This document shows, in pieces, positions 15,654 through 63,716 of a DNA stretch of 64,000 bases. The stretch is taken from contig CAJPGC010000007.1 of NCBI GenBank assembly GCA_905339405.1, positions 27,739 to 91,738 of the forward strand, written 5' to 3'. Made by a program: the position numbers and the translations under genes. The stretch is from an uncultured bacterium. GTDB lineage: Bacteria; Desulfobacterota; GWC2-55-46. The notes under the pieces are model-generated. The model saw only the letters and a list, made by a program, of their open reading frames with translations. It was not told where the DNA came from and searched no databases. Positions within the stretch are counted from its first letter, which is position 1. The number at the start of each line of letters is the position of its first letter.

Positions 15654-15656
15654 TTC

Positions 15657-17359: not shown

Positions 17360-17372
17360 AAGGGGTCTTTAG

Positions 17373-21235: not shown

Positions 21236-22315
21236 ATGAAAAAAGTGATTTTTGCGGCAGCGGCGTTGTTGATGTTTTCAGGCTGCTTTGGGGGGCCGAC
21301 TCCACTTATGAAGGCCTCTTTTGAGGGAAATAACGGCGAGGTGAAAAGCCTCCTTGAAAAGGGGGCGGACATCGATGAAAGAGGCACTTTGCCGAACGTT
21401 ACCGGGTACGCGCCTAAATACTGGCTCAAATCCACCGCGCTCATGGCTGCGGCGCATTACGGCCAGGACGCCACGGTCGACCTTCTGCTCTCGCGCGGCG
21501 CTGATATAAACGCTGAAAACTTCCTGTGTCTTTCAGCTGTCCACCTCGCGACCGTAAGCAAGAAGAAAGAGACCGTCAGCCTTCTGGTAAAAAAAGGCGC
21601 GAAATTGGAACCGGCTGACGCGTCCAGCGCGTGGTGCCATATTCACAGCACCCCTCTTCAAGTGGCGGCGTCAGAGGGCGATATTGAAATCGTAAAGCTC
21701 CTTGTCAGAAATGGCGCCGGTGTCGACACTGGAGGCTACTGCGGCTACAGCCCTCTATTGCTTGCCTCGTTGGAGGGGCACTATGAGACGGTTGAATACC
21801 TGCTCAAAAACGGGGCCGATGTGAAACTGAAATCACAAAACAAACTTGGATGCCAGGAGACTACTCCTCTGAAGATAGCCGAGGAAAAAGGGCATACAAA
21901 GGTTGTCAAGCTGCTGAAGGATGCCGCAGCAGGCGCGGTAGCCGTCAATAAGGTGATCGCCGCGCCTCCTGAAGACCCCTTGGAGGCGGCAGCCTTCGAG
22001 GCAGAGGCCAGAAAGTACAGGGAGAGCGCCGTGAAACCGGCTTTCCCGGAAGAGGCAAGGAAGTACAAGGCCCAGGCCGAGTTCGCCTTACAGCAGAAAA
22101 AATTTGAGAACGCGGTCGATTTGTACGGCAGGGCCCTGAAGGCCGCCCCGTGGTGGCCTGACGGCCATTTCAACAGGGCGCTCATACTCGGGGAGCTCTC
22201 GAGGTATGAAGAGGCAATCAGGGAGATGAAGCGCTATCTCCTCCTTGCTCCCGACGCGCCGGACGCCAGGGACGCGCAGGACAGGATATACCAGTGGGAG
22301 AGCGTTGCGGAATAG
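21236..22315 (+). CDS. Ankyrin-repeat / TPR lipoprotein
   Basis: Lipobox (LLMFSGC), at least five ankyrin repeats (G.TALM.AA..G....V.LLL..GADIN), C-terminal TPR-like helices. Confidence 0.8.
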   Translation: MKKVIFAAAALLMFSGCFGGPTPLMKASFEGNNGEVKSLLEKGADIDERGTLPNVTGYAPKYWLKSTALMAAAHYGQDATVDLLLSRGADINAENFLCLSAVHLATVSKKKETVSLLVKKGAKLEPADASSAWCHIHSTPLQVAASEGDIEIVKLLVRNGAGVDTGGYCGYSPLLLASLEGHYETVEYLLKNGADVKLKSQNKLGCQETTPLKIAEEKGHTKVVKLLKDAAAGAVAVNKVIAAPPEDPLEAAAFEAEARKYRESAVKPAFPEEARKYKAQAEFALQQKKFENAVDLYGRALKAAPWWPDGHFNRALILGELSRYEEAIREMKRYLLLAPDAPDARDAQDRIYQWESVAE

Positions 22316-22369
22316 GCTGGCGGGGCCACTGAGCAGGCCTGAACGCAGTAGTTCGGAGTAGAGGACGTC

Positions 22370-23851
22370 ATGCGGAGAATATACATTTTTGGAGCGTTCC
22401 TGTTCTTGACGGCAGCCTTGCCGTCTTTAATACACGCTGAAGACTGTTCCGAGAGCTACGGGGCCAGACTTGCCTATGGCAATAAGAACGCGTGGAAGTC
22501 GTGGTGTTACAAATGCGGCGGGTCATTTGTCGAAAGCGGGCCGCGTTCCGAGTGCAGGCCTGGCCCTGATTGGGGAAAAGGAAGCTCTTCGAGCACCGGC
22601 GGCGACAAGGTTGGCAGCGGTTCTTACCAGTTCACTCCTACCGGAGACCTGCGAATAGACGCGCCCCTTGCGGTGATGTCAGGTTTTTTGAACGGCATGG
22701 AAGAGGCAAGCAAGGAGAGGAGCGCCCGACAGCAGGCGGAGAGAGAGCGGGCGGAGTATGAGGCTGTGATGGCGGCCCAAAAGGCCGCCGAAGAGGCCGA
22801 GAGGCGCAAAGAAGAGAGCTTTGAGCGCCTCTCGGGAGCTGTAAAGGGCGTTGAAAAAAACGGCATATTCCTGAAAAACATGGGCGATACGCAGGTGCTC
22901 AAGCTGAAGACCGGAAATGATTTCTTCAATTCGCCCGGAAATCCGGAAGGCATGGCCGAAACGGAGACTCACAGGAAGCTGGCGTTAAAATTAGGCGATG
23001 AGCCTTCTACGGTCATCGGAGTGCCTGTAAAAGATAATGGAAGCGTGTCTGTCCCCCCGGCACAGGTTGTTAAGGAAGAGAAGCTAAAGGCCGGGGAAGC
23101 GAATCTTCAAGCCGCTGAGACGGACGGCGATAAGGCGCTCATAGAGTCCATGAGCGCCATTGGAAAGCGTCACAATTGGGAACCTGAGGAGCAGGCCCGC
23201 CTTGATAAGGCCTTGAACGAGCTTGATTTCGACGGAGACCCCGACGCCACGCCTGCCGAGATACGGGAGACCTGGCGGAACATGCTCCGGGAGGGCAGGG
23301 GAGAGCTCCTCAAAAACGAGGCCGCGAAAGGACACGGCCCCGGCCTTCAGTGGGCGGGAGCGGGCGAGCAGACAAAATACATGGATTGCACCATCTTCGC
23401 GCTGGCAAACGCCTCAGGAGTGCCTTACGGCGTAGTCGCCGCAAGGGCTGCGGAGCTTATCCGTGAAGCTGACTGGCGTGGCCCAGCTGCACAAAAGAAA
23501 CCTCAAGAGGTGATGGAAAAAACCGGCCTGAACGGCGGTGAGGTCATCATACTTGCCGAATCATTGGGCCAGGCAGAGGTCGTCAAGAGCGCTGATTTCC
23601 AGAATGTCCTGAAAGAAGGGCGGCCGGTGCTCGTGAACGTCGCGCCGCAAAACGGCGGAAGCGGCGGGCACCAGGTAGTCATTACAAAGACTTTCGAGCA
23701 TGAAGGACAGACCTGGTACGAGATGATGGACTCGAACCAGGGCGCGCCTGGGCGTCTGTACCTGAGCGCCGATGAGCTTGACACGATACTCCAGGAGAAC
23801 GGCATAGCTTTCCGCCCGGAACCCGGAAGGAAACCTGCTCTGCTTCGCTGA
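22370..23851 (+). CDS. Secreted protein with Cys-rich N-terminal region, coiled coil and C-terminal papain-like (C39-like) cysteine peptidase fold
   Basis: Signal peptide; N-terminal CxxxxxC...CYKCGG...C; charged coiled coil; C-terminal candidate triad Cys (YMDCTIFALANASG), His (GGHQVVITK), Asp (MMDSNQG). Confidence 0.55.
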   Translation: MRRIYIFGAFLFLTAALPSLIHAEDCSESYGARLAYGNKNAWKSWCYKCGGSFVESGPRSECRPGPDWGKGSSSSTGGDKVGSGSYQFTPTGDLRIDAPLAVMSGFLNGMEEASKERSARQQAERERAEYEAVMAAQKAAEEAERRKEESFERLSGAVKGVEKNGIFLKNMGDTQVLKLKTGNDFFNSPGNPEGMAETETHRKLALKLGDEPSTVIGVPVKDNGSVSVPPAQVVKEEKLKAGEANLQAAETDGDKALIESMSAIGKRHNWEPEEQARLDKALNELDFDGDPDATPAEIRETWRNMLREGRGELLKNEAAKGHGPGLQWAGAGEQTKYMDCTIFALANASGVPYGVVAARAAELIREADWRGPAAQKKPQEVMEKTGLNGGEVIILAESLGQAEVVKSADFQNVLKEGRPVLVNVAPQNGGSGGHQVVITKTFEHEGQTWYEMMDSNQGAPGRLYLSADELDTILQENGIAFRPEPGRKPALLR

Positions 23852-24040: not shown

Positions 24041-24973
24041 ATGAAACCATTCCCTTCATCCTTGAGAAGCAGGCTTGGATGGGCAGAACTGCTTGAGCTT
24101 AAAAGGACTGCCGAGCCGCACGTCCATCAGATAGAGCCGACGAACAGCTGCCCGTATTCGTGCGTAATGTGCCCGAGACCAGAACGCATGGAGCGCGAGG
24201 TCGGGTTCATGGAAATGGGCCTCTTCGAGAAAATAATCGACGAGATATCCGGTTTCTCCGAGCCGGTCCGCAAAAAAGAGATAGAGCTTTTTCACTTCGG
24301 CGAATCGCTCCTGCACCCCCGTATACACGAGATGGCCGGATATGCTTCCGGCAAGGGCCTCAACGTGACCCTTTCGGTCAATGCCCCCGAGCTTACCCCT
24401 CAGCTGCTGGACCGGCTCGCCTCAAGCGGCCCGTGCAGGATAATAATCTCCTTCGACGGCTACGACGCTGAAAGCTACAGGAAGATACGCGGGAGCGCGG
24501 CCGATTATGAAAAAGGCACGGCCAACCTCAAATATGCCGCCGGGCTCCTCAAGAAAAAAGGCCTTGCCGGGACAAAAATCTCCCTCAGGGTAATCCGGCT
24601 GAACGCGAACAACCCGCGAATCGACGAAGTCAGGGAGTACTGGGAAGCGCTCGGGCTGCCAGTAGAGGTCCGCGAGTTTTTCCCGTGGACTGAAAAAGAG
24701 CTCGCGTCCCTCGGCATCGTGCAGAAGTACCCGCCATTCATGCCCTGTCCCTTTCCGTGGCAATATCTCGTTGTGCAGTGGGACGGCACTGTTGTGCCGT
24801 GCTGCAGGGACTATAACGGCGTCAACCAGATGGGCAACGTCCGGGGCTCGTCCTTGAAGGAGATATGGAACAGCCCCGTATACGCCGATTTCAGGGCGCA
24901 GCACCGGACAGGGGAATACGGCAGCAACGGACTGTGCAGGGGATGCATGGAAATCTTTTACACAGAGGGATAG
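24041..24973 (+). CDS. Radical SAM / SPASM-domain protein
   Basis: CPYSCVMC (Cx3Cx2C) radical-SAM cluster motif and a C-terminal Cys-rich SPASM-like region (CPFPW...PCC...CRGC). Confidence 0.8.
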   Translation: MKPFPSSLRSRLGWAELLELKRTAEPHVHQIEPTNSCPYSCVMCPRPERMEREVGFMEMGLFEKIIDEISGFSEPVRKKEIELFHFGESLLHPRIHEMAGYASGKGLNVTLSVNAPELTPQLLDRLASSGPCRIIISFDGYDAESYRKIRGSAADYEKGTANLKYAAGLLKKKGLAGTKISLRVIRLNANNPRIDEVREYWEALGLPVEVREFFPWTEKELASLGIVQKYPPFMPCPFPWQYLVVQWDGTVVPCCRDYNGVNQMGNVRGSSLKEIWNSPVYADFRAQHRTGEYGSNGLCRGCMEIFYTEG

Positions 24974-26553
24974 TGGAAGAGCAGGTCTTACATGGTGAAG
25001 GGGGACAAGCGCCTTCCAGGGATACTGTCGCCGCGCTGTTCCAAAGGGCCGTTCACGTCAACGGGGCGGCCCCGCTCGTCTTTTTCGACGACGGCAGTTT
25101 TTTGAGCTACACCGAGGCCGGCTCTCTTGCCTTTGAGATCGCCGGGCGTTTGCAGGCTAAAGGAATCGGCAAGGGAAGCTACGTGGTATCAGCTTCAGCT
25201 GCCTCAGCTGAGGCAGCGCTCGTTTTCTGGGCATCGATGCTCGTCGGCGCGGTCTTTGTGCCGGTTGACGGCAATATGCAGCCGGAGAAGCTCTCGAGAA
25301 TTCTGGAGCTCATAGACCCTGGGATTGTCTTCACGGGCCCGGAATGGGCAGGGAAAAGCGCTCTTGCGGGCTTGAAGCCGGTCATATACACTTCGTCCGC
25401 CACCACGCCTGTTGCAGGCGGCTCTCAACAATTTCAACAGTTTTTCGATGGCGGTGAGGGCGCTTACAGTCCACAGCCGGTCTCGCCCGAAGACGCCGCC
25501 GTCGTCCTTTTCACTTCAGGCACATCAGGAGAGCCAAAAGGCATAGTGCTCTCACAAGGCGCGCTTTCAGGCAGCGGGCGCTTGATGGCTGAGACTTATC
25601 AATGGGGGCCGTCTGACAAAGTCCTTATGACCGGTGATTTCCATACCATGAGCGGGTTGAGAAACCCGTGCGTCGCTGCTCTCTATTCAGGGGCTTCTTT
25701 CATAATCGCGCCACAGGGCGCAAGGGGGAGCGCTCCGGCCTGCTCGGAGCTGATGGAAAGGCTCGGAGTGACCATATTGTGCACGGTCCCAGCCTTTCTA
25801 TCCCAGTTCACGAGGTTCCAGGAGAAGATATCAGGCGGCTTTGCGAGAAGCCTCAGGTTCGTCATGTGCACTGGGACAAACCTTTCCCCGGCGGTCATCG
25901 ATGAATTCGAAGGGCGTTATGGCAAGTCTGTGCTCAACTATTACGGCTTGACGGAGACGGCCGGCCTTTGTGTCGGCGTTCCCCCGGGAATGGAACAGAA
26001 GCTAAAGGGCGCCGTCGGCGTGCCGCTCGGCTGCTCGCTCAAGATAGCCGCGCCTGAAGGCGCCGAGGCGGGCGAGGGAATATCAGGGGAGCTCCTCATA
26101 TCAACAGAGAACATCATGAGCGGCTATTTAAAAGACCCTGAAGCTACTGAAAAGGCTTTTGCAGGCGGCTGGTTCTTGACAAGGGACCTCTGCCGCAGAT
26201 GGCCGGACGGCTCGATAGAGCTTTTAGGACGCGTTGACGACGCTTTCAAGGACCTGAGGGGAGAGCTCGTGCACCCCTCCGAGATAGAGAAGGTCATCGA
26301 AGGGCTGCCAAACGTTCTTGAAGCCGTTGTCTGCGGCTTTGGCGAGCGGGACGGACGTCCTGCGGCGGCCGCCTTTGTAGTCGCAAAAGAAAAAGCGGCG
26401 GACGAGGACATTTTGGCCGGCGAGCTCCGCCGCCAGGTCTTCGCCGCGCTCGGCCCTTACAGGACGCCCGCTCTTATCATTTTCGTGGACTCGCTTCCAA
26501 GGGGGACGAACGGAAAGGTGCTTAGAAGAAAATTGATGGAGACCCTGCCATGA
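24973..26553 (+). CDS. AMP-dependent synthetase/ligase (adenylate-forming enzyme)
   Basis: AMP-binding motif FTSGTSGEPKG plus YGLTET and GEL core motifs. GTG at 24973 overlaps the upstream TAG (TAGTG); the listed ORF start at 24865 is an upstream extension. Confidence 0.75.
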   Translation: MEEQVLHGEGGQAPSRDTVAALFQRAVHVNGAAPLVFFDDGSFLSYTEAGSLAFEIAGRLQAKGIGKGSYVVSASAASAEAALVFWASMLVGAVFVPVDGNMQPEKLSRILELIDPGIVFTGPEWAGKSALAGLKPVIYTSSATTPVAGGSQQFQQFFDGGEGAYSPQPVSPEDAAVVLFTSGTSGEPKGIVLSQGALSGSGRLMAETYQWGPSDKVLMTGDFHTMSGLRNPCVAALYSGASFIIAPQGARGSAPACSELMERLGVTILCTVPAFLSQFTRFQEKISGGFARSLRFVMCTGTNLSPAVIDEFEGRYGKSVLNYYGLTETAGLCVGVPPGMEQKLKGAVGVPLGCSLKIAAPEGAEAGEGISGELLISTENIMSGYLKDPEATEKAFAGGWFLTRDLCRRWPDGSIELLGRVDDAFKDLRGELVHPSEIEKVIEGLPNVLEAVVCGFGERDGRPAAAAFVVAKEKAADEDILAGELRRQVFAALGPYRTPALIIFVDSLPRGTNGKVLRRKLMETLP

Positions 26554-28349
26554 GCAGTATAGTTCAAGTTTTTGAAAACGCTGAAAGAGTGAAGCCGGGC
26601 AAGCCCTTGATGGTGACTGCTTCGGGCGAGCTTACATATGGAGCGCTCATTGAGCGCACTTCTCTCATGGCCGGACTTTTAAAGAAAGACGGCATATCTG
26701 AGGGCGACAGGGCGATAGTGTCGAGCGCGGACGACATCGAGTCAGCCTCGTCTTTCATCGGCCTTATGCGCTGCGGGGCCGTTCCGGTGATGGTAGATGC
26801 GCACCTTCCGGCACCCGAATGGACTGAAGTGGCAAAGGCCGCGAAAGCTAGCTGCGCTTTTGTTGACCAGGCGTTGAGGGAGCGCGCGGAAAAAATAACC
26901 GGCGTGTATGAATTCGGGAGGTCAACTAAGGCAGGCATGCTCGGCAGGCTTCTTAAGAGGGACAGGGCAGGGTACCCGGCGTTCTTCGAGGGGATAGTCC
27001 CGGCAGCTCCGCCCGAGAAAATTGACGAGGGTCTTGACGCGTACATAATGTTCACTTCAGGGACTACTTCGCGGCCCAAGGGCGTCAGGATAAGCCATAA
27101 GGCGCTTTTCGCCCATCTTGGGACTCTTTCAAGGCAGTTCGGCTACTCAGGCGAGGCGCGCATACTCAATGTCCTTCCGCTTAGCCACGCGGACGGCATC
27201 GTCCAGGGGCCTCTTGTTGCCCTGTACAACTTCGCCACCGTATATAGGCCATTGGAGTTCAGCATACAGAGGATTACAGAGCTCCTCGACGCGCTCTACA
27301 GGGAGCGGATAACGCACTTTGTCGCAGTGCCGACCATGCTGTCGCTCATATACAAGCTGTGGCAGGGACACGAGGAGAGTTTTTCGTCGGGCGACCTGAA
27401 GATGGTTGTCTCGACGGCCTCTTATCTGGAAAAGGAGATATGGGAAGGGTTTGAAAAAAAGTTCGGGGTCAGGGTCTCGAACGTCTACGGCCTTACAGAG
27501 ACAGTTGCAGGAGGGCTCTTCAGCGGCCCCTCAGATTCGGGGAGGCGCGTAGGGACCGTCGGCAAGCCTGTAGACTGCGAGGCAAGGGCAGCCCTTGAGG
27601 ACGGTGCTCCCGCGCCGGACGGAGAACCAGGCGAGCTGCTTTTGAAGGGAGAAAATCTCATGACTGGCTACTTCGAGGACAGCGAGGCCACGGCCCAGGC
27701 TCTCGCGGGTAGCTGGCTCCATACCGGCGATATCGCCGTCAGGGACAGCGACGGTTTTTACAGGATAACCGGAAGGAAAAAGAACATCATCGTCACCGGA
27801 GGGCTGAACGTTCAGCCCGAGGAGGTGACAGAGGCATTGAAGGCCCACCCTGATGTGCTGGAAGCGGTGACTTTCGGCGTCGAGGACGATGTCTCCGGAG
27901 AGCTGGTCGCCTCATGCGTGGTCCTATCGTCTGGGTCGGCTGCCGATGATGCCGGACTTGCCGAGTGGTGCAGGGGAAGGATAGCGCACTACAAGGCGCC
28001 ACGGTGCGTACATATTTTCGAAGAGCTTCCCAAAGGGCCTTCTGGCAAGGTGATAATCGCCCAGGCTAAAAAGATGGCGCTGGAAGCGGCCGTAGCGGAG
28101 AGCGCGGCGGGAGAGAGCGTCATTGAAAAAGTGCTCGGCGCCGCGTCGGCTGTTTTCAAGTCGCCGGTCAAGGAGCTTTCCGAGCGTTCGACCACGGCTG
28201 ATGTCGCCGGATGGGATTCGCTCGCCCACCTGCAGTTCGTCGTCGCGCTTGAAGAGGCTTTTGATATAAGGCTCGACCCGTCTGACATAATAAGGATAGA
28301 GTCGATAGGCGAGGCTGAAAGGATAGTGCGTGAGAAGCTCTCGTCCTGA
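26550..28349 (+). CDS. Adenylating enzyme fused to a C-terminal acyl/peptidyl carrier protein domain (DltA-DltC-like fusion)
   Basis: AMP-binding motif FTSGTTSRPKG, YGLTET. C-terminal ~80 aa carry the phosphopantetheine-attachment motif GWDSLAHL. Start ATGA overlaps the upstream stop. Confidence 0.8.
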   Translation: MSSIVQVFENAERVKPGKPLMVTASGELTYGALIERTSLMAGLLKKDGISEGDRAIVSSADDIESASSFIGLMRCGAVPVMVDAHLPAPEWTEVAKAAKASCAFVDQALRERAEKITGVYEFGRSTKAGMLGRLLKRDRAGYPAFFEGIVPAAPPEKIDEGLDAYIMFTSGTTSRPKGVRISHKALFAHLGTLSRQFGYSGEARILNVLPLSHADGIVQGPLVALYNFATVYRPLEFSIQRITELLDALYRERITHFVAVPTMLSLIYKLWQGHEESFSSGDLKMVVSTASYLEKEIWEGFEKKFGVRVSNVYGLTETVAGGLFSGPSDSGRRVGTVGKPVDCEARAALEDGAPAPDGEPGELLLKGENLMTGYFEDSEATAQALAGSWLHTGDIAVRDSDGFYRITGRKKNIIVTGGLNVQPEEVTEALKAHPDVLEAVTFGVEDDVSGELVASCVVLSSGSAADDAGLAEWCRGRIAHYKAPRCVHIFEELPKGPSGKVIIAQAKKMALEAAVAESAAGESVIEKVLGAASAVFKSPVKELSERSTTADVAGWDSLAHLQFVVALEEAFDIRLDPSDIIRIESIGEAERIVREKLSS

Positions 28350-29250
28350 GGCGCGCCCCCGCCGCCACGCCCCTCCTCTTTATTTATGGTTTGCCGTCGC
28401 TGCCATGCTGGCCGTCTTTTTCCTCGCAAGCATTCCTGCCTTTAACCGGTTCAATGCCGTCGACAGGACTTTTTTCGAGTCTTCAGCGCGCAGGCTCGAG
28501 ACTTTTCGTGAGCGTGCCGGAGGCGGCGGGAAAAGCCTCAAGGTGCTTGCCATAGGAAGTTCCCTGATGGACAGGGCCGTTTATTTCGACGAGCAGATGG
28601 AAGCACTGGCAGAGAGCCGCGGCCTTCCCAACCTTGTGTTCGCCCGCATCACCCGTTCCGGCGGCGACATTTCGAATTTCATGCCTCTCTTGAGCCAAAT
28701 GGCACAGGCGGCTCCGGACATCATCCTGGTCGAGTCGGACAGCGTTTTTTATGACCGCCATACGATAAAGAACGTATTCTTGAGGGAGTATATTGTTTTT
28801 TTGCGGGCCTTGCTGATGGCAAACCTCAAGTCCGGGCCCACGCTTCCGGAGCCCCGGGTCTATATTGAAAACGAGTTCGACCTTGCGTTGGACGGCAAGA
28901 CATCCGCGCGCCCCGGTAAGACTTTACTTGATAAGGCATTGCTTGACTGGAACGAGATGGGTTTGACCGGCAGGTACAAGATAGAGCTTTTTTTAAGCGA
29001 GGCAGGTAAAACGGGCGCGAAGGTCGTGTTGATAAATATCCCGAGGAACCCGGAATTTCTGGCGCGTATCCAGCGTGAGGGTGCAAACGGAGAAAAACAG
29101 CGGCTGGAAGATGATTACGGCATAAGGTCGATAATGTTTGATGGAGAGCACAGCCCCGAGCTCTATTCGGACTACGCCCACCTCAATGAAAAAGGGCGCT
29201 CGGTATTTTCTGACTGGCTCATCGAGGAGCTCAAGGGCGGGCGCTTATGA
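28330..29250 (+). CDS. Membrane-anchored SGNH-fold protein, DltD/AlgJ-like
   Basis: N-terminal TM helix; SGNH block I-like (VLAIGSSLMD) and block V DxxH (SDYAHLNEKG). Exact start is uncertain (GTG near 28330-28333). Confidence 0.6.
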   Translation: MRSSRPEARPRRHAPPLYLWFAVAAMLAVFFLASIPAFNRFNAVDRTFFESSARRLETFRERAGGGGKSLKVLAIGSSLMDRAVYFDEQMEALAESRGLPNLVFARITRSGGDISNFMPLLSQMAQAAPDIILVESDSVFYDRHTIKNVFLREYIVFLRALLMANLKSGPTLPEPRVYIENEFDLALDGKTSARPGKTLLDKALLDWNEMGLTGRYKIELFLSEAGKTGAKVVLINIPRNPEFLARIQREGANGEKQRLEDDYGIRSIMFDGEHSPELYSDYAHLNEKGRSVFSDWLIEELKGGRL

Positions 29251-30377
29251 ACCTGGCCTCTGTCCAGATGCTCGGCTGGATAGCGTTGACAATAGCCCTT
29301 TTCTGGGCCGCCCCGCGAAGGTTCCAGCCCTATGTGGCGGCGGCCTCGTGCGCATTGCTGCTGTTGGTTTTCTCGCCTGTCTCTTTCGTCGTGCTCTCTA
29401 TTTTCACAGCTCTCGGGTATGTCCCTTTCAGGTACGGGAGACGGTCAGCCGCCGGGGCGCTCTGCGCTGGCGGGGCCGTGGCAGCGGTCTTCATCTGGTT
29501 CAAGTCAGGGGCCGCCACAGGAGGGGCGCTCGTGCCGCTCGGTTTCGGCTTCTATACGCTCAGGGCGCTCCATTACGGCCTTGACTCGGTCAAGCGCGCG
29601 CTCCCTCCGCACACTTACTGGCAGTTCGTAAGCTATATGTTCTTCCTTCCGACGATTATTGCCGGTCCGATAAACAGGTTTCAGGAATTCCATAGGGAGC
29701 TGGCGCGAAGAAGGTTTGATAAAGATCTTTTCTCGAAAGGGTGCGAGAGGATCCTTTACGGGTTCGTGAAGATAATCGTGCTGGCCAGCTACGAAGTCTC
29801 CCATATCCTGCGCCTGCGCATCGAGGCCATGGAAGGGCAGCACGAGATACTGGCCGCCTACCTCGACTGCATAAGGTACGGGCTCAACCTGTATTTTCAG
29901 TTCTCAGGCTACTCGGACGTGGCAATAGGCTTTTCAATGCTTCTGGGCTTCAGGATAGCCGAAAATTTCAATTACCCGTTCCTTGCCCGGAACATCGGCG
30001 ATTTCTGGAAGAGATGGCATATATCCCTTTCGAACTGGTGCAGGGACTATGTCTACATGATGGCGCTCTCGGTGAGCAGGCGTCCGTGGGCTGCCGTCAT
30101 CGCTTCGATGCTCGTCCTCGGGGTCTGGCATGAGCTTTCGCCAAGGTACCTTGCCTGGGGAGTCTACCACGGAGCGGGGATAGCCGTCTGGCAGGGTTTT
30201 CAGAAGGTAAAAAAGAATATTCCGGCAATGGATTTTGCCGGAGGGAAGTACCTGACGGAAGGGGCCTCCTACCTGCTGACAATGAACTTCGTGATACTCG
30301 GGTTTGCCATAACAAAGGAGCCTGACCTGGCTTCGGGGCTAAGAGTGATCGGTAAAATACTTTTTTTCTGGGTGTAA
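29247..30377 (+). CDS. MBOAT-family membrane O-acyltransferase (DltB/AlgI-like)
   Basis: Polytopic protein with the MBOAT signature FWKRWHISLSNWCRDYVY and a downstream conserved His (WHELS). Start ATGA overlaps the upstream stop. Confidence 0.85.
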   Translation: MNLASVQMLGWIALTIALFWAAPRRFQPYVAAASCALLLLVFSPVSFVVLSIFTALGYVPFRYGRRSAAGALCAGGAVAAVFIWFKSGAATGGALVPLGFGFYTLRALHYGLDSVKRALPPHTYWQFVSYMFFLPTIIAGPINRFQEFHRELARRRFDKDLFSKGCERILYGFVKIIVLASYEVSHILRLRIEAMEGQHEILAAYLDCIRYGLNLYFQFSGYSDVAIGFSMLLGFRIAENFNYPFLARNIGDFWKRWHISLSNWCRDYVYMMALSVSRRPWAAVIASMLVLGVWHELSPRYLAWGVYHGAGIAVWQGFQKVKKNIPAMDFAGGKYLTEGASYLLTMNFVILGFAITKEPDLASGLRVIGKILFFWV

Positions 30378-30658
30378 AGGATGTACGGGTTCTTAAGAGG
30401 GTTCCTGCCAAAGGCCGCTGCCGACGTGCTAGTCGTATTATGGTACCTGCTGCTCATATTCCTTGTCGTCGCTCTTTCCGGGAGCGGCCATGAGGAGTTC
30501 AGGTACCTTAATATATGACAAGGCGCGCCATGACGTCATTTTATACAGATAGCGGAATGTCTCAAATTTGATTTACAGGATGTTCCTGTGGCCTTTTTGG
30601 GACACCAAAAACAAAGGGGTTAGCCGAAGCTAACCCCTTGATTTGTTTAAAAAAGAAT

Positions 30659-30732
30659 TGGCTGGGGGACTAGGATTCGAACCTAGATAAACGAGTTCAG
30701 AGCCCGTTGTCCTGCCGTTAGACGATCCCCCA
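30659..30732 (-). tRNA. tRNA-Gln (anticodon CTG)
   Basis: Reverse complement folds as a cloverleaf: acceptor TGGGGGA/TCCCCCA, T-arm CTAGG-TTCGAAT-CCTAG, anticodon loop CTCTGAA, discriminator G + CCA. Very similar to E. coli tRNA-Gln. Confidence 0.85.
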
Positions 30733-35723: not shown

Positions 35724-35960
35724 ATGTCTGTTGAGAATAAGGTCAAGAAGATAATAATAGAGCAGCTGGACGTGACCGAGGACGAGGTCACTCCCACCGC
35801 CTCTTTCGTTGACGACCTCGGCGCCGACTCTCTCGATACCGTCGAGATGGTCATGGCTTTCGAGGAGGAGTTCGGCATCGAGATACCCGACGAGGACGCC
35901 GAGAAGATAAAGACCGTCCAGGACGCTACCGAGTACATCAAGAAGAAGTCCGGCAAGTAA
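35724..35960 (+). CDS. acpP: Acyl carrier protein
   Basis: 78 aa, DSLDTVE phosphopantetheine site; RBS ggaggtagttgaaATG. Confidence 0.9.
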
Positions 35961-47335: not shown

Positions 47336-47356
47336 AGGGTAACGTTTGTTACCCTA
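47335..47356 (+). promoter_or_regulatory. Palindromic operator (candidate LexA/SOS box) overlapping the lexA start codon
   Basis: TAGGGTAAC-GTTT-GTTACCCTA: perfect 9-bp inverted arms, located between the -10 element and the ATG. Confidence 0.45.
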
Positions 47357-47967
47357 TGAAGCCGCTTACCACAAGACAAAAGGAAATACTCGTTTTTTTA
47401 CGCGAGTTTATAAGCGAAAGCGGATACCCGCCCTCACTGAGGGACATCTGCGCCCGCTTCGGCATAAGCGGCCCCAAGAACGCGGCAAAGCACCTCGACG
47501 CCCTCGAAAAAAAGGGCTTCATAAGGAGGAGGGCCGCCTCGTCGAGGGCAATAGAGCTTCTCGGGCCATCCCCGCTGGGAGGCGTGCCAATTCCCATAGC
47601 GGGAAGGGTGAGGGCGGGCTCCCCTGAACCAGCTGTCGAGGACATAACAGGCCACGTGGTGCTCGATGAGAGCTTCTTCAGGTGCTCCGGGGCTTTTGTC
47701 CTGAAGGTCGTGGGCGAGAGCATGACAGGGGCCGGGATAAACGACGGGGATTTCGTCGTCGTCAGGCCCCAGCCTGAGGCCGCGCCCGGCGACATTGTCG
47801 TGGCCCTCCTGGACGGCGAGGCCACTGTGAAGACCTTCCTGCGCGACGGGGACGAGGTCGTATTGAGGCCCGAAAACCCGGCGATGAAGCCTATAAGGGT
47901 TACCGGGACGGAGGACTTCGCAATTGCCGGCAAGGTCGTGTCGGTCATAAGGCGGATTGGGAAATAG
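47356..47967 (+). CDS. lexA: LexA repressor (S24 peptidase)
   Basis: N-terminal winged HTH, AG cleavage site (IAGRVRAG), Ser/Lys dyad (GESMTGAGI ... KTF). Confidence 0.9.
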   Translation: MKPLTTRQKEILVFLREFISESGYPPSLRDICARFGISGPKNAAKHLDALEKKGFIRRRAASSRAIELLGPSPLGGVPIPIAGRVRAGSPEPAVEDITGHVVLDESFFRCSGAFVLKVVGESMTGAGINDGDFVVVRPQPEAAPGDIVVALLDGEATVKTFLRDGDEVVLRPENPAMKPIRVTGTEDFAIAGKVVSVIRRIGK

Positions 47968-47986
47968 TTTAAGGAATTTAAAGAGT

Positions 47987-48223
47987 ATGGCTGAAAGCAT
48001 AAAGGAAGAGATAAAGGTCGTGGCCGTCTTCGACAGGGGCTTGAAGCCGGTCAAGTTCCGTTGGCGCGGGCGTCTTTACATCATAACGGAGGTGACCCAC
48101 ACCTGGTCTTCGAGGCATGGGGCTTCCGGCATACTCCACTACGCGGTCACTGACGGGGCCACGCTTTTCGAGCTGGCCTACAACCAGTCGACGATGAGAT
48201 GGTCGATAGAGGCGTCCGAGTGA
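47987..48223 (+). CDS. Small hypothetical protein within the SOS operon
   Basis: 78-88 aa ORF between lexA and dinB; its stop overlaps the dinB GTG (GTGA). Confidence 0.4.
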   Translation: MAESIKEEIKVVAVFDRGLKPVKFRWRGRLYIITEVTHTWSSRHGASGILHYAVTDGATLFELAYNQSTMRWSIEASE

Positions 48224-49452
48224 AGCTCATAATGCACGTCGACATGAACGCCTTTTTCGCCTCCGTCGAGCAGAGGTGCGACCCGGCCCTTCGCGGCAAG
48301 CCCATAGCCGTCGTCGGCTCGGCCAAGAGGACGGTGGTGACGACCGCCTCCTACGAGGCGAGGAAGCTGGGCGTCAAGACCGGAATGAACAAGTTCGAGG
48401 CAAAGAAGGCCTGCCCGTCGCTCATTCTCGTCATCGGCGACAACAGGAAGTACATAGACGCCTCGGTGCGCATACTGGAGATATTGAAGTCCTTCTCCCC
48501 GAAGGTCGAGGCATATTCCATCGACGAGGCGTTCCTCGACATAACGGGCTGCCTTAAGCCCTTCGGCTCGCCGGAGGCACTGGCAAGGGCCGTGAAGGAG
48601 AGGATAAGGGAAGGGGTCGGCCTTACCTGCTCCATCGGCATAGCGCCTAATAAGCTCCTGGCAAAGCTCGCCTCCGACATGCAGAAGCCGGACGGCTTGG
48701 TAATAATAGATGAGGCCGGGAAAGCGAAGCTGCTGGAGGACCTCCCGGTGGGCGAGCTCTGGGGCATAGGCCCGAGGCTCACCGAGCACCTCGGCAGGTT
48801 GGGAGTGAAGACCTGCGGCCAGCTCGGCAGGTTCCCGGCAAGCGTGCTGCGCGAGAGGTTCGGCATAATAGGCGAGAGATTGAGGCTCATGGGCCAGGGC
48901 GTCTATTCGAGCGAGGTAGTGCCGATAGGGCAGGAGGAAGAGGCCAAGAGCGTCGGCCACTCCACGACTCTGCCTGCCGATACGTCCGAGAAAGCGGAGA
49001 TCAAAAGGTATCTCCTGAAGCTCTCCGAGATGGTTGGCGCGAGGGCGAGGGAGCATTGCCTCAAGGGCGGCAAAGTATGTCTCACAATAAGGTACCCTGA
49101 TTTTTATACCTTCTCGCGACAGAGAACGCTACCCGTCCACACGAACGACACCCGGGCCATATATGCCTCGGCCCTGGCCATACTGGAGTCGATGAGGCTC
49201 AGGACGGCCGTCAGGCTCCTGGGCGTTTCGATATCCGCTCTCGCGAAGGGCAGCGGCCAGATGGCCCTTTTCGAGGAGGACAGACGGCGCGAGAAGCTCC
49301 TCGAGGCTATGGACGAGGTCAACAGGTCTTTCGGCGAGTACACCGTCACCTGGGGGACTCTCCTGGACGAGGGGGGCGGAAGCGAGGACGATACCGGGGT
49401 GATATCCCCGGCGTGGAGGCCTGTCGGTGTAAAAAGGGTCAACGTGAAATGA
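48220..49452 (+). CDS. dinB: DNA polymerase IV (Y-family)
   Basis: Y-family motifs (IMHVDMNAFFASVE, SIDEAFLD). Residues VKLIMH align with E. coli DinB MRKIIH, supporting a GTG start at 48220. The listed ORF start 48199 and an ATG at 48232 are alternatives. Confidence 0.85.
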   Translation: MKLIMHVDMNAFFASVEQRCDPALRGKPIAVVGSAKRTVVTTASYEARKLGVKTGMNKFEAKKACPSLILVIGDNRKYIDASVRILEILKSFSPKVEAYSIDEAFLDITGCLKPFGSPEALARAVKERIREGVGLTCSIGIAPNKLLAKLASDMQKPDGLVIIDEAGKAKLLEDLPVGELWGIGPRLTEHLGRLGVKTCGQLGRFPASVLRERFGIIGERLRLMGQGVYSSEVVPIGQEEEAKSVGHSTTLPADTSEKAEIKRYLLKLSEMVGARAREHCLKGGKVCLTIRYPDFYTFSRQRTLPVHTNDTRAIYASALAILESMRLRTAVRLLGVSISALAKGSGQMALFEEDRRREKLLEAMDEVNRSFGEYTVTWGTLLDEGGGSEDDTGVISPAWRPVGVKRVNVK

Positions 49453-56212: not shown

Positions 56213-57340
56213 TTGAGGAGGCAGACCGTGAAAAGTATCTTGATTACCGGAGGAGCGGGATTCATAGGCTCGCATCTGTCTGATGAGCTCCTTGCCAACG
56301 GGTACGAGGTCAGGGCGCTGGACAACCTCTCAGAGCAGGTCCACGGCAGCGGCAGCACGAGGCCCGAGTACCTCGACGACAGGGTCGAACTCGTAGTAGG
56401 CGACGTAAGGGACCCTGAAGCTGTCCGTGAGGCGCTCGACGGGGTCGACGCGGTGTTCCACTTCGCCGCAGCAGTCGGCGTAGGGCAGTCGATGTACGAG
56501 ATTGCCGAGTACGTTGACGTGAACAGCCGGGGCACGGCCGTGCTCCTCGAGGAACTTATAAAACAGCCTGTCAAAAAGCTCGTCGTGGCCTCGAGCATGA
56601 GCATCTACGGGGAAGGCCTTTACAGGGCCTCCGACGGCTCGATGATATCGAACGCCTGCAGGGAGCTCGAAGCCATAAAGGCCGGCAAATGGGAGGTAAT
56701 GGACGGGTGCGGGCAAGCAGCCGTTCCTTTGCCGACTGGCGAGACAAAGGAGCCCTCCCTTTCATCTGTCTACGCCCTCACGAAGTACGACCAGGAGAAG
56801 ATGTGCCTCATGACTGGCAGGGCTTACAACATCCCGACCGTCGCAATGAGGTTCTTCAACGTCTACGGCCCGAGGCAGGCCTCCTCGAACCCGTATACCG
56901 GCGTGCTGGCCATATTCTCAGCGAGGTTCATGAACATGAGGCCGCCGCTCATCTACGAGGACGGTCTGCAGAAAAGGGACTTCGTGAGCGTTCACGACAT
57001 CGCCAGGGCCTGCAGGCTCGCGCTTGAGAGCGGCTCCGCAGATTATCTTTCCTTCAACGTAGGAAGCGGCCGGAGCTATTCGATACTGGAGATTGCCGGG
57101 CGCCTGTCAAAGGTCTTCGACGTCGACATAAGCCCCGAGGTCGTCGGAAAGTACAGGGTTGGGGACATAAGGCACTGTTTCGCCGACATCGGCCTGGCCG
57201 AAAGGCTCCTCGGCTACACTCCTTCCGTTTCGCTTGACGAGGGTCTCGAGGAACTGCGGCAATGGCTCGAAGGAAGGGTCGCTCACGACAGGGTAGCCGA
57301 GGCGAGCGCGGAACTTGCTGGACGCGGCCTCACAATCTAA
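56213..57340 (+). CDS. NAD-dependent epimerase/dehydratase (UDP-sugar 4-epimerase-like SDR)
   Basis: TGGAGFIGSHL Rossmann motif and YxxxK region. Possible start at GTG 56228. Confidence 0.85.
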   Translation: MRRQTVKSILITGGAGFIGSHLSDELLANGYEVRALDNLSEQVHGSGSTRPEYLDDRVELVVGDVRDPEAVREALDGVDAVFHFAAAVGVGQSMYEIAEYVDVNSRGTAVLLEELIKQPVKKLVVASSMSIYGEGLYRASDGSMISNACRELEAIKAGKWEVMDGCGQAAVPLPTGETKEPSLSSVYALTKYDQEKMCLMTGRAYNIPTVAMRFFNVYGPRQASSNPYTGVLAIFSARFMNMRPPLIYEDGLQKRDFVSVHDIARACRLALESGSADYLSFNVGSGRSYSILEIAGRLSKVFDVDISPEVVGKYRVGDIRHCFADIGLAERLLGYTPSVSLDEGLEELRQWLEGRVAHDRVAEASAELAGRGLTI

Positions 57341-57354
57341 GGCGGGATGAATCG

Positions 57355-58638
57355 ATGAGATACGCCCTTGTGAACCCTAATTGGAATTTTGACGGCAGCG
57401 CGTACTTCGGCTGCCGCGAATGTCATTTTCCGCTCGAGCTCGGTTACTCGAAGGCTCTTCTTGGTGAGGCCGGTTTCGATTCGATCATCATCGACGCTCA
57501 CATGGAGGGACTGTCACTGGCGGAGGTAAGGCTGAGGGTTGAGGCGTTCTCGCCTGATTTCATCGTTGTCACTACCGCGCCGAGCTATCTTTTCTGGCGC
57601 TGTCCGCCTCCGGAGCTCAAGATTCCGATGGAGTTGATGGAAGCCCTTGAAGGGATAAAGGGGCAGAGGATAGTCATGGGGCCGCACGGCTCGGTGACTC
57701 CGGCCGCCGTGATGAAAAAACTCGGCGCTGACATCGTCATAATTGGAGAGGGCGAAAGCGTCCTTCCCGATATCGGCAGGAACGCCGGAGACTTCGGCAA
57801 GGTGCCTTCGATATGCGTCAACCGCAACGGCGTGGCGGAAATACAGGGAAGGCCTGCCGCTTCAGATATGGCGTCGCTTCCGGCCCTCAAGTGGGGGGCT
57901 GAATACATTAGCAGGCATTCGCACCACCACCACAGGTTCGCAACCCGGCCGGAAGGGCTCGGGGCCGAGGTGGAAGCTTCGCGCGGCTGCCCCTATTCGT
58001 GCACCTTCTGCGCGAAAGACTCCTTCAGGACGAATTACAGAAAGCGCCCTCTTGAGGCTGTGCTCGAAGAGCTCGACTGTCTCTGCGCGAACGGGGTTGG
58101 GTACGTCTACTTCATAGACGAGATATTCATGCCGGACAGGGCCCTTCTTGACGCGCTGGCCTCAAGGAAGCTCTCTTTCGGCATACAGACGAGGATAGAC
58201 CTGTGGAAGCCCGGGATGCTCTCTCTCCTCGGAGAAGCCGGGTGCGTTTCCATTGAGGCCGGGGTCGAGAGCATATCAGAGCGCGGCAGGAGCCTTCTCG
58301 GTAAAAGGTGCGCCGCTTCTACCGAAGAGCTCGTGGCGCTCCTTTCGGCGGCCAGGAAATCCGTGCCATTCGTTCAAGCGACCCTGCTCGATTCCCGCGT
58401 CGACGACCCATTGGCAGTCGAAGCATGGAGGAGCATGCTGCTGGACCACGGCGTGTGGGCGAACAGCCCGGTGCCCATGTTCCCATATCCCGGCTCCGGT
58501 GAGTATACGAAAAGATGGGGCAGGCCAGACGATTACGCCTGGGAGCGCGCTCACGAGCATTACCTCGAGGTCAACGGCTCCTTCAGCGACATCCAGAGCT
58601 CTAACCCTGTGCCCTTGCGGGAGCTCGAAAAAAGATGA
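57355..58638 (+). CDS. B12-binding radical SAM protein (class B)
   Basis: N-terminal cobalamin-binding-like domain and CPYSCTFC (Cx3Cx2C) motif. ATG at 57355; the listed ORF start 57262 overlaps the epimerase gene. Confidence 0.75.
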   Translation: MRYALVNPNWNFDGSAYFGCRECHFPLELGYSKALLGEAGFDSIIIDAHMEGLSLAEVRLRVEAFSPDFIVVTTAPSYLFWRCPPPELKIPMELMEALEGIKGQRIVMGPHGSVTPAAVMKKLGADIVIIGEGESVLPDIGRNAGDFGKVPSICVNRNGVAEIQGRPAASDMASLPALKWGAEYISRHSHHHHRFATRPEGLGAEVEASRGCPYSCTFCAKDSFRTNYRKRPLEAVLEELDCLCANGVGYVYFIDEIFMPDRALLDALASRKLSFGIQTRIDLWKPGMLSLLGEAGCVSIEAGVESISERGRSLLGKRCAASTEELVALLSAARKSVPFVQATLLDSRVDDPLAVEAWRSMLLDHGVWANSPVPMFPYPGSGEYTKRWGRPDDYAWERAHEHYLEVNGSFSDIQSSNPVPLRELEKR

Positions 58639-59759
58639 GCGCGCCAGGAAGGCTTAAAAAGGTATTGATGACGGCCGACACGGTCGGCGGTGTCTGGACT
58701 TATTCAATCGAGCTGGCCGCCGCACTGGAAAAAAAGGGCGTGCAGGTCTTTCTTGCCACCATGGGCGCGCCGTTGACCCACGGCCAGATCGCTGAAGTTA
58801 AAATGGTGCCTGGCCTCGAGGTATTCGAGAGCGGCTTCAGGCTCGAATGGATGGAAGACCCCTGGGAGAACGTAAGGCTTGCGGGAGAGTGGCTTCTCAG
58901 GCTCGAAAACTATATCAAGCCGGACGTCATACATTTGAACGGATATTCTCACGGCAGTGTGCCTTTCAGCGCGCCTGCCGTGGCAGCCGGCCATTCTTGC
59001 GTACTTTCGTGGTGGGAAGCCGTAAAGGGCGGAGATGCTCCCAAGGACTGGGACAGGTACCGCCGGGAAGTAGGCAGCGGGCTTGCGGGGGTGAAAGCTG
59101 TTTGCGCGCCGACGCGGGCCATGCTCGCCTCCCTCCACAGGTTTTACCGGTTTTCGGCCCCCTCGCGCGTAATACCTAACGGAAGGGAAGAAGAGCTTTT
59201 CAGGCCCGCCGAAAAACAGGACTTCATCTTCGCCGCCGGAAGGCTCTGGGACGAGGCTAAAAACATACGGACTCTCCAGGCCGCAGCGTTTTCGCTCGAA
59301 TGGCCCGTTTACGCCGCAGGCGAATGCTCGCATCCTTCAGGGACTCAGCTCCCTGATGGAGCGATAAGGGCCCTGGGCGTGCTTTCGCAGAAGGAGCTTG
59401 CCTCATGGCTCTCGGCCGCCTCTGTTTTCGCGGCACCGGCCCTCTACGAGCCGTTCGGCCTCACGGTTTTGGAAGCCGGTCTTTCGGGAGCTGCGCTCGT
59501 GCTCGGCGACATACCTTCCCTTAAGGAGAACTGGGAGGACGCGGCCCTTTTCGTAGAACCGAGGGATACGAAATCGCTGAAAGATATCCTGTCTCTCCTC
59601 ATGAGGGACGCCGGGTTGAGGTCTGCTTACGGCATAAAGGCAAGGGCGAGGGCACTCGAGTTTACGGCCTCGAGGATGGCCGAAGGCTATATCGATTTTT
59701 ACGAAGAAGCGCTTTCCGGTAATACAGGTTTCGAGGAGGCCCAAAGATGCGTTTCGTGA
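58635..59759 (+). CDS. Glycosyltransferase family 1 (GT4-type)
   Basis: C-terminal EPFGLTVLEAGLSGAALV GT1 motif; ATGA overlap with the upstream gene. Confidence 0.85.
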   Translation: MSAPGRLKKVLMTADTVGGVWTYSIELAAALEKKGVQVFLATMGAPLTHGQIAEVKMVPGLEVFESGFRLEWMEDPWENVRLAGEWLLRLENYIKPDVIHLNGYSHGSVPFSAPAVAAGHSCVLSWWEAVKGGDAPKDWDRYRREVGSGLAGVKAVCAPTRAMLASLHRFYRFSAPSRVIPNGREEELFRPAEKQDFIFAAGRLWDEAKNIRTLQAAAFSLEWPVYAAGECSHPSGTQLPDGAIRALGVLSQKELASWLSAASVFAAPALYEPFGLTVLEAGLSGAALVLGDIPSLKENWEDAALFVEPRDTKSLKDILSLLMRDAGLRSAYGIKARARALEFTASRMAEGYIDFYEEALSGNTGFEEAQRCVS

Positions 59760-61926: not shown

Positions 61927-61947
61927 GTCGAGAAAGAAAAGGAGTTT

Positions 61948-63042: not shown

Positions 63043-63716
63043 CACACCATGAGCCTCGGCGAAGGTCATCTGGAGAAGCGGTAAACGTCGGCGGCGCAGA
63101 ACGCCTCATCTCCGCGCTTCTCGGCGGCTTCCTGGCACTTAAGGCTGCCAGAAAGGGCGGGCTGCTGAGGACTCTTGCCAGCGGGTATTTGGTGTACAGG
63201 GGCGCAACCGGCCACTGCGGGCTTTACAAGGCAGCCGGTATAAATACGGCTGAGGGCCGCGGGATAGTGCTCGACGAGACTGTGACCGTGAACAGGCCTG
63301 TCTCCGAGGTCTACGCCTTCTGGCGCAACCTCGAAAACCTGCCCGAGTTCATGGAGCACCTCAAGGAAGTGAACGTCATCGACAGGAAACGCTCCCACTG
63401 GGTCGCCGTTGTCCCGGGCGGAGCCCGCATAGAGTGGGACGCCGAGATAGTCGGAGAGAGCGAGAACGAATACATCGCCTGGCAGTCGCTGCCGTACTCA
63501 GACATTGAAACGCGCGGTTCAGTTGAATTCAGCGAAGCGCCCGGACACAGGGGCACCGTCATCAGGGTCCATATGCTCTACAACCTGCCGGGGGCGGGGA
63601 CGGCCGCAGTGGCGAGGCTTCTTGAGCATGTAACCTTCAGGCAGCTCCGCGGAGAGCTCCTGAGGTTCAAGGAGCTGATGGACGGCAAGGGGCCGGACAG
63701 GGCTATCGGAGAATAA
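63039..63716 (+). CDS. SRPBCC (cyclase/dehydrase-like) protein with N-terminal TM segment
   Basis: Polyketide_cyc2-like pattern (VTVNRPVSEVYAFWRNLENLPEFMEHL ... W.S). Confidence 0.6.
   Translation: MTHHEPRRRSSGEAVNVGGAERLISALLGGFLALKAARKGGLLRTLASGYLVYRGATGHCGLYKAAGINTAEGRGIVLDETVTVNRPVSEVYAFWRNLENLPEFMEHLKEVNVIDRKRSHWVAVVPGGARIEWDAEIVGESENEYIAWQSLPYSDIETRGSVEFSEAPGHRGTVIRVHMLYNLPGAGTAAVARLLEHVTFRQLRGELLRFKELMDGKGPDRAIGE

Follow-up and report, generated by a model that had tools for sequence, protein, structure and literature searches.

What does an adenylation enzyme that is fused to its own carrier protein do in a row of genes predicted to serve membrane acyl transfer? The question is raised by a six-gene operon (24041..30518) on the forward strand of contig CAJPGC010000007.1 from an uncultured bacterium. 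A stretch of 64,000 nucleotides of this contig was analysed; the whole stretch is called the window, and all coordinates count from its first letter. The operon encodes, in order, a radical S-adenosylmethionine (SAM)/SPASM enzyme, a stand-alone ligase (ligase 1), a second ligase fused to a carrier domain (ligase 2), an SGNH-fold protein, an MBOAT (membrane-bound O-acyltransferase) and a microprotein of 45 amino acids. The successive junctions are TAGTG, ATGA, a 20-nucleotide overlap, ATGA and a 3-nucleotide gap. With a probability of about 0.75, the fusion protein is the self-loading entry enzyme of a Dlt-like relay in which the MBOAT, a tyrosine-shuttle microprotein and the SGNH protein would acylate an acceptor in the cell envelope. 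This assignment is based on sequence, on a predicted structure and on analogy.

The gene of ligase 2 starts with ATG at 26550 and ends with the stop codon at 28347-28349 on the plus strand, and its product has 599 residues. Pfam domains, an alignment of homologues and an AlphaFold2 model divide it into an adenylation (A) domain (26571..28049), an alanine-rich linker (about 28050..28106) and a carrier domain (28107..28346). Pfam finds AMP-binding (PF00501) at residues 8-375 with 210 bits, AMP-binding_C (PF13193) at residues 425-500 with 55 bits and PP-binding (PF00550) at residues 527-589 with 26.4 bits, above the gathering cut-off of 20.8 (E 8.6e-6). The presence of both AMP-binding domains and of motifs A3, A5, A7, A8 and the A10 lysine makes the enzyme a member of the ANL superfamily. 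The superfamily forms of these motifs are T-S-G-T-T-x-x-P-K-G for A3, Y-G-x-T-E for A5, T-G-D for A7 and G-R for A8. Residues T169-G171, T173, K177, G178, G314-E317, G393, D394, G408, R409 and K500 are invariant among 22 diverse homologues. The AlphaFold2 model, which was built with 22 homologues, has a pLDDT of 86.4 and a pTM of 0.85. Foldseek relates it to ANL enzymes in the thioester-forming conformation and superposes it over its full length (about 615 columns) on 3rg2, an engineered fusion of EntE and EntB in which an A domain is joined to an aryl carrier protein.

The carrier domain contains the motif GWDSLAHL (residues 554-561, 28209..28232, plus strand), in which alignment and model identify Ser557 (codon 28218..28220) as the predicted phosphopantetheine site. 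In an alignment of the 100 C-terminal residues from 120 full-length homologues, W555, S557 and E568 were found in all 120 sequences, H560 in 118, G554 in 113 and D556 in 104. The isolated C-terminal 78 residues match solved acyl carrier proteins (ACPs), the best being 2lml_A with AWDSLSHM (E 1e-5). In the model a disordered, alanine-rich linker (516-520) is followed by helices 524-536, 557-571, 577-582 and 586-598, which form a four-helix bundle with Ser557 at the N-terminus of helix II. A sequence-only reading of this DNA had described an adenylation enzyme fused to its own carrier through a GWDSLAHL site, had called it an adenylation-thiolation (A-T) didomain and had suggested a PP-binding search of residues ~520-599 and a structural prediction. 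The above-threshold Pfam match within that range, the invariant serine in helix II and the confident model all agree with that description, and because the match and the conserved helix II serine are both present the observation stands. By sequence and model, the 599-residue protein is an A-T didomain, with AMP-binding, AMP-binding_C and PP-binding in one chain and a serine of the phosphopantetheine type.

A sceptic might see in the C-terminal domain only the remnant of a former carrier, degenerate and without function. In favour of this are the modest PP-binding score and the absence of PF00550 from the precomputed Pfam list of many homologues. Against this, Ser557, Trp555 and Glu568 remain invariant down to ~40% identity, the domain is never lost in homologues and the four-helix model is confident, so that a remnant is extremely improbable. 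The carrier does not belong to the DltC family: it scores 16.9 bits against the NCBIfam model NF003464 (DltC), which has a cut-off of 68, and about 25 bits against generic ACP models.

Nor is the fusion an artefact of assembly or of a frameshift. The best 120 database homologues of ligase 2, which are 40-94% identical to it, have ~590-630 residues and cover the carrier region, a few truncated entries excepted. As family members near and far share this length and span the carrier, the full-length architecture is universal in the family and an artefact could be ruled out.

A locus scan with one genome per species gave ~40 loci with the full-length ligase-carrier architecture. With the proteins of the window as queries against the open reading frames (ORFs) of the fetched loci, a gene order of ligase 1, ligase 2-carrier, SGNH protein, MBOAT and 45-residue ORF was found to recur in ~40 loci, and a search begun from MBOAT homologues gave the cassette in three further contigs. 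The loci belong to at least six phyla. In the Bacteroidota they occur in Niabella, Hymenobacter, Spirosoma, Pedobacter, Flavisolibacter, Cytophaga, Saprospiraceae, Lewinella, Ekhidna and Polaribacter, and the other hosts are delta-, gamma-, beta- and alpha-proteobacteria, Bdellovibrionales (Bdellovibrionota), Planctomycetota, Riflebacteria and Sericytochromatia. Clustering of the ORFs of at least 90 residues over 38 loci showed the ligases and the MBOAT in all 38 and the SGNH-fold protein in 35. Beyond these, no conserved neighbour was seen among such ORFs, the remaining clusters being antisense shadow ORFs, and no phosphopantetheinyl transferase, aminotransferase or transporter was conserved beside the cassette in the 38 loci. 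In every locus examined it is ligase 2 that bears the carrier; ligase 1 never does. The ligase-carrier fusion is thus a fixed hallmark of the cassette.

Some short contigs binned as Burkholderiaceae or Planctomycetaceae (CAJPFZ010000272.1 of 1640 bp, listed as L005, and those of the proteins P0004, P0138 and P0139) hold fragments that are 94% identical to the window ligases or cluster with them at 90%. Such fragments suggest contamination between bins, or errors of binning, and not a genuine occurrence in these taxa.

The constancy of the neighbourhood bears on another explanation of the didomain, namely that it is the loading module of a cytoplasmic pathway of the nonribosomal peptide synthetase (NRPS)/polyketide synthase (PKS) type, or of a lipid pathway, and that the adjacent MBOAT is incidental. 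A-T didomains are classic initiation modules of NRPS and PKS assembly lines, and the more distant matches of the same locus scan are Streptomyces megasynthases (L046 onward). However, in almost all loci, whatever the phylum, the didomain gene is followed by genes for an MBOAT, an SGNH protein and a microprotein, with start and stop codons that overlap, and neither the operon nor the conserved neighbours encode a condensation (C), ketosynthase (KS) or thioesterase (TE) domain. Because these partners are absent, a role in NRPS/PKS initiation was rejected, and the explanation as a whole is very improbable. The evidence favours instead the entry enzyme of a proposed membrane relay, the remaining parts of which would be encoded by the next three genes.

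The sequence-only reading had set the didomain beside the Dlt and Alm systems, and this setting is supported by the SGNH-fold protein, the DltB-like MBOAT and the DltX-like microprotein that follow it. The MBOAT (376 residues, 29247..30377, plus strand, Pfam MBOAT) is of the short, DltB-like form. Its histidine motifs, RWH(258)ISL and GVWH(295)EL, align with the RWHxSL and WH motifs of DltB, and its only PDB sequence matches are the DltB entries 6bug and 8jem (E 3e-34). It ends in ILFFWV and has no tyrosine motif. Such a motif is found on the microprotein, which is encoded at 30381..30518 (plus strand), 3 nucleotides past the MBOAT stop, and is in the public record a hypothetical protein, CAG1064937.1. 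The microprotein, MYGFLRGFLPKAAADVLVVLWYLLLIFLVVALSGSGHEEFRYLNI, has one hydrophobic stretch, taken as a single transmembrane (TM) helix, and ends in F40-R-Y42-L-N-I (Tyr42 codon 30504..30506); it is a candidate acyl shuttle. An ORF of 44-47 residues with the same C-terminal motif lies directly after the MBOAT gene in about 32 of 41 loci. The microproteins of 22 taxa align over 45 columns, interrupted by a single gap of one residue; all of them have Y2 and Y42, and L5, W21, Y22, L28 and F40 are conserved in at least 90%. In DltX the C-terminal FxYxxF is the 'acyl shuttle' motif, and DltB lacks the two extra helices of longer MBOATs and uses the separate DltX microprotein (PMC12148441). The combination of a short-form MBOAT with a tyrosine motif on a separate microprotein therefore matches the split arrangement of Dlt specifically.

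The third partner, encoded at 28330..29250 (plus strand), is a membrane-anchored SGNH-fold protein of 306 residues and a putative analogue of DltD and PatB. A conserved cytoplasmic PPLxxW precedes its single N-terminal TM helix. The catalytic candidates are Ser78 (28561..28563) and Asp281 with His284 (29170..29181), and the GxS and DxxH motifs that contain them are near-invariant. There is no Pfam or NCBIfam match to this protein, and since a profile search of PDB sequences gave nothing meaningful for the family, a comparison of folds was needed. The family comprises 521 clusters at 50% identity (E 1e-3 or below) among 1.84 billion representatives. In related contigs its gene is called ~65 codons too late, giving for example 239 residues in locus L001, a relative of the window with 90% identity. 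Judged from the positive-inside N-termini, the SGNH domain and the C-terminus of the microprotein are predicted to lie outside the cytoplasm.

The identity of the acyl group has to be sought in the A domain of ligase 2. Its nearest solved relatives in a PDB sequence search are oxalyl-, fatty-acyl-, feruloyl- and malonyl-CoA synthetases. No DltA entry was found among its 60 best PDB sequence matches and no DltA model among its 25 best NCBIfam matches, all 25 of which are acyl-CoA ligase families. In a whole-fold comparison the A domain superposes on the CoA ligases MenE, McbA and CBL, of 484-503 residues, with target-normalised TM-scores of 0.84-0.87. The A4 region reads L-P-L-S-H-A-D-G, in which H213, D215 and G216 are invariant. 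Neither ligase 1 nor ligase 2 shows an aspartate where the alpha-amino-binding Asp of NRPS A domains and DltA aligns, in a region where the alignments are weak; because of this weakness a prediction of the cargo from the A4 region was dropped and no substrate call was drawn. Since the A domain is of the acyl-CoA-synthetase type and not DltA- or AlmE-like, the cargo is probably a carboxylic acid other than D-alanine or glycine.

Could this acid be a lipid? In that case ligase 2 would be an enzyme of the fatty acyl-AMP ligase (FAAL) or ACP-ligase type that loads a medium- or long-chain fatty acid, and the MBOAT and SGNH proteins would acylate a membrane lipid, a lipoprotein or lipopolysaccharide (LPS). 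Long-chain-fatty-acid-CoA ligase families are indeed the best NCBIfam matches of ligase 2 (PRK06187 with 302 bits, and FadD-type models), fatty-acyl-CoA synthetases are among its best solved relatives, and a fab/plsX cluster adjoins the cassette in the window genome. The scores of the fatty-acid ligase families, however, are all far under their thresholds, and oxalyl- and malonyl-CoA synthetases match equally well. The fab neighbourhood is not conserved in the other loci, and in the window a terminator and a tRNA gene intervene. FAALs are marked by an insertion of ~20 residues in the N-domain, which blocks the use of CoA, and by specificity for long-chain fatty acids. In the fold comparison, the superposition of the A domain on CoA ligases and a sole low-confidence insert in its model, at 126-138, speak against such an insertion. 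The known MBOAT/SGNH systems with a tyrosine shuttle transfer small acyl groups (PMC12148441). A lipid cargo is therefore unlikely, although it is the least unlikely of the alternatives considered here, and a non-lipid carboxylic acid is preferred.

Ligase 1 (24973..26553, plus strand; Pfam AMP-binding and AMP-binding_C) is a stand-alone ANL enzyme of 526 residues. It starts with GTG, as in the public gene call, and the TAG stop of the radical SAM/SPASM gene overlaps this start. The upstream ligase had been described as a paralogue of ligase 2 without a carrier domain. Pfam likewise finds no carrier domain in it; the two enzymes, however, are only ~28% identical, belong to different ANL subfamilies and are not recent paralogues. 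Among 32 orthologues of ligase 1, motifs A3, A5, A7, A8 and the A10 lysine are conserved, a family-specific invariant MSGLR stands in for the usual A4, and all 32 sequences end directly after A10. The nearest solved relatives are the A domains of the NRPS LgrA (E 4.5e-53), an L-prolyl-carrier-protein ligase and beta-aminoacyl-ACP synthetases, followed by malonyl-CoA synthetase, and the amino-acid adenylation domain model TIGR01733 gives 197 bits.

These relatives lend weak support to the plausible suggestion that ligase 1 may charge the carrier of ligase 2 with a second substrate in trans. Its gene is present in most loci and translationally coupled, its catalytic motifs are intact and its closest solved relatives are carrier-loading NRPS A domains. 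Three loci (L020, L022 and L025) speak against its being essential, in which no ligase 1 lies within 8 kb although ligase 2-carrier and MBOAT are present. Its absence there indicates that the fused enzyme can suffice as loader and that ligase 1 is dispensable for the relay.

The same evidence can be carried further. Ligase 1 might be the physiological loader of the carrier, while the A domain of ligase 2 makes, for example, a CoA thioester, or an amide on a carrier-bound intermediate. The carrier-loading relatives of ligase 1 and its TIGR01733 match favour this assignment, as does the resemblance of the ligase 2 fold to CoA ligases and to the amide-bond synthetase McbA. It does not explain why the carrier is fused always to the other ligase, nor how the three loci without ligase 1 would operate. 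In addition, the ligase 2 model adopts the thioester-forming conformation with motifs A8 and A10 kept, and ligase 1 lacks an Asp at the NRPS alpha-amino-binding position, where the alignment is weak. We consider this division of labour decidedly unlikely, somewhat more so than a lipid cargo, and retain ligase 2 as the enzyme that loads its own carrier.

Ligase 1 is consistently accompanied by a SAM-type module. In the window this is the first gene of the operon, which encodes a radical SAM/SPASM enzyme of 310 residues (24041..24973, plus strand; Pfam Radical_SAM and SPASM). A separate gene of this kind stands beside the cassette in the window and in L001, L007, L008, L016 and L086, and in L035 (5207..7984) and L087 (1585..4245) ligase 1 has the domain fused at its N-terminus. 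In most Bacteroidota and several other taxa ligase 1 has instead an N-terminal extension of ~430 residues (e.g. L010 5122..8004). This extension has a weak match to Methyltransf_11, a class-I methyltransferase family, and a winged-helix-like segment; its methyltransferase motif is degenerate, DRTGW in place of GxGxG, and PHVHLSN is conserved. The radical SAM/SPASM enzyme is a semi-conserved accessory of the cassette. We infer that ligase 1 and the SAM-type module form a branch that makes or tailors a precursor.

The following mechanism can be proposed for the relay. Ser557 would be phosphopantetheinylated by a phosphopantetheinyl transferase encoded elsewhere. The acyl-CoA-synthetase-like A domain would then adenylate a carboxylic acid, probably not D-alanine, and thioesterify it in cis onto its own carrier arm. 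As DltC docks on DltB, so the tethered carrier would dock on the MBOAT at its cytoplasmic face, and the MBOAT histidine would hand the acyl group through the membrane to the microprotein, at Tyr42. From there the group would pass to Ser78 of the periplasmic SGNH protein, which would esterify an envelope acceptor, be it a polysaccharide, LPS, peptidoglycan or an outer-membrane component. Ligase 1, with the adjacent or fused radical-SAM or methyltransferase-like module, might make, tailor or add a second building block, most simply in trans on the same carrier. The steps from loading to SGNH transfer are proposed because of the analogy with DltA, DltC, DltB, DltX and DltD, the conserved residues and the topology. 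A fuller version of this proposal has about an even chance of being correct. According to it, the didomain would be the loading module of a phylogenetically broad counterpart of Dlt in diderm bacteria. An acyl group other than D-alanine would be built by a SAM-dependent enzyme, of the radical-SAM/SPASM or the methyltransferase-like kind, together with the two ANL ligases, and the relay would install it on a polymer of the periplasm or the outer membrane.

Several findings weigh against the relay. The MBOAT scores 196.5 bits against the NCBIfam model TIGR04091 (DltB), below the equivalog cut-off of 375. The SGNH fold was assigned by comparison of a predicted structure, the model of which is of moderate confidence (pLDDT 62.6), and the protein has no match to DltD at the level of sequence. 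The microprotein likewise has no match in Pfam or NCBIfam, the DltX models included; its likeness to DltX consists of length, topology and a six-residue motif, the last position of which is W, Y, F, I, L, V, M or G among the 22 taxa and hence not always F. No gene for a phosphopantetheinyl transferase was found by Pfam among the window ORFs scanned, from 18313 to 63716. The part given to ligase 1 in the mechanism is, in turn, pure inference. As for the segment at window 1-18300, which lies outside the Pfam scan, synteny with L001 suggests genes for chemotaxis and response regulators.

The operon is closed by a hairpin resembling a bidirectional intrinsic terminator (30614..30639, stem of 11 bp), which is followed by a convergent gene for tRNA-Gln(CTG) (30659..30732, minus strand). 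Beyond these lie yceD, plsX, fabH, fabD, fabG, acpP (35724..35960) and fabF. The housekeeping AcpP is thus encoded 5 kb from the cassette, in a separate transcription unit. On the other side, comparison with the corresponding region of L001 (6188..7492) shows that the window has two extra genes at 21236..23851 (plus strand), between a conserved ORF of 319 residues and the radical SAM gene. They encode a protein with ankyrin and tetratricopeptide repeats (21236..22315, plus strand) and a protein of 493 residues with a hydrophobic N-terminal segment and no Pfam match (22370..23851, plus strand). Situated just 5' of the cassette, the two genes look like an insertion.

Farther downstream, an operon-like run at 56213..63716 (plus strand) encodes an NAD-dependent epimerase/dehydratase, a B12-binding radical SAM protein, a GT4 glycosyltransferase, three tandem paralogous Glyco_trans_1_2 proteins of ~360 residues each and a protein that joins YgaP-TM to a polyketide-cyclase/START-like domain. 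The run is possibly a locus for a glycan or a glycolipid, and its product could then serve as the polymer that accepts the acyl group. A gene for LexA followed by one for a Y-family (impB/mucB/samB) polymerase, at 47356..49452 (plus strand), forms an SOS mutagenesis pair that is unrelated to the cassette.

Public annotation misnames the genes of the cassette, which appear as 'HIP-CoA ligase', 'fatty-acyl-CoA synthase', 'peptidoglycan O-acetyltransferase' or 'AlgI', and 'hypothetical protein'. A full-text literature search, the coverage of which excluded most subscription journals, gave no account of the cassette, which is conserved in Gram-negative bacteria and apparently undescribed. A-T didomains as such are well known. 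The new element is not the fusion alone; it is the fusion as the fixed entry to a second carrier-dependent relay of MBOAT, tyrosine shuttle and SGNH protein in Gram-negative bacteria. MBOAT/SGNH pathways other than Dlt are said to lack a carrier protein and a DltX-like microprotein, and acyl-shuttle microproteins of the DltX type have been discussed as specific to Dlt (PMC12148441).

So far, Dlt is the sole MBOAT/SGNH system of envelope acylation known to have a carrier protein, and not an acyl-CoA, as its acyl source. If the proposal is true, a second system that depends on a carrier, has a shuttle microprotein of its own and uses a different acid is spread over Bacteroidota, Proteobacteria, Planctomycetota and other diderms. 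The relay would then be a general bacterial route for the export of activated acyl groups, and many environmental Gram-negative bacteria would carry an unrecognised decoration of the envelope. The ligase-carrier fusion cassette offers a clean handle for re-annotation, and cultivable hosts are found in Pedobacter, Spirosoma, Niabella, Flavisolibacter and Hymenobacter as well as in Cytophaga aurantiaca.

Among known systems, the didomain itself has counterparts in NRPS loading modules, FAAL-ACP fusions, the A-T part of carboxylic acid reductases and the engineered EntE-EntB protein. All of these share with it the A core, the A sub-domain, a flexible linker and a four-helix carrier. They differ in the downstream partner, which here is a membrane MBOAT relay and not a C, KS or reductase (R) domain, none of which is present in the cassette.

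In the AlmEFG system of Vibrio cholerae, which attaches glycine to lipid A, a small carrier is loaded by a DltA-like ligase and passes its load to a lipid of the envelope. The two are separate proteins, and AlmG is an acyltransferase of the LpxL type that acts at the cytoplasmic face. On this general description of Alm, the cassette would have in common with it a ligase-loaded carrier that serves the envelope, and differs from it by the fused carrier and by the proposed relay of MBOAT, SGNH protein and tyrosine shuttle. In PatA, AlgI and other acetyl-CoA-dependent MBOATs the tyrosine motif is fused to the enzyme on two extra C-terminal helices (PMC12148441). PatA/PatB, AlgI/AlgJ/AlgX and WssH-type systems use acetyl-CoA and have neither a ligase nor a carrier, in contrast to the cassette, the MBOAT of which is of the short form with the motif on a separate microprotein.

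The dra genes of Bordetella pertussis are orthologous to dltA, dltB, dltC and dltD; their carrier is a protein of its own and their cargo is D-alanine. In the part of PMC4448142 that cites Taneja et al. 2013, the dra locus is presented as a Dlt homologue in a Gram-negative bacterium that modifies an outer-membrane component. By that account, dra is a Dlt-type system of a diderm in which an outer-membrane component is modified by way of a carrier, and a similar role is proposed for the cassette. Set against the general description of the dra genes, the cassette forms a family apart, in which the carrier is fused and the ligase is not DltA.

The closest parallel is Dlt of Gram-positive teichoic acids, the logic of which the cassette shares: a ligase that uses ATP, a carrier of the phosphopantetheinyl type, a short-form MBOAT, a microprotein of ~45 residues with a single TM helix and an FxYxxΦ motif, and a membrane-anchored SGNH-fold protein as predicted transferase. 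Ligase and carrier are here one polypeptide, of which the A domain is of the acyl-CoA-synthetase type and not DltA, and the carrier is generic, ACP-like and not DltC. The MBOAT does not reach the equivalog cut-off for DltB, no sequence match links the SGNH protein or the microprotein to the DltD and DltX models, and the cassette has a second ligase and a SAM-type enzyme. Its hosts are diderm bacteria, which have no teichoic acids. Judged by sequence and analogy, the cassette thus appears to work like Dlt, and it is not Dlt.

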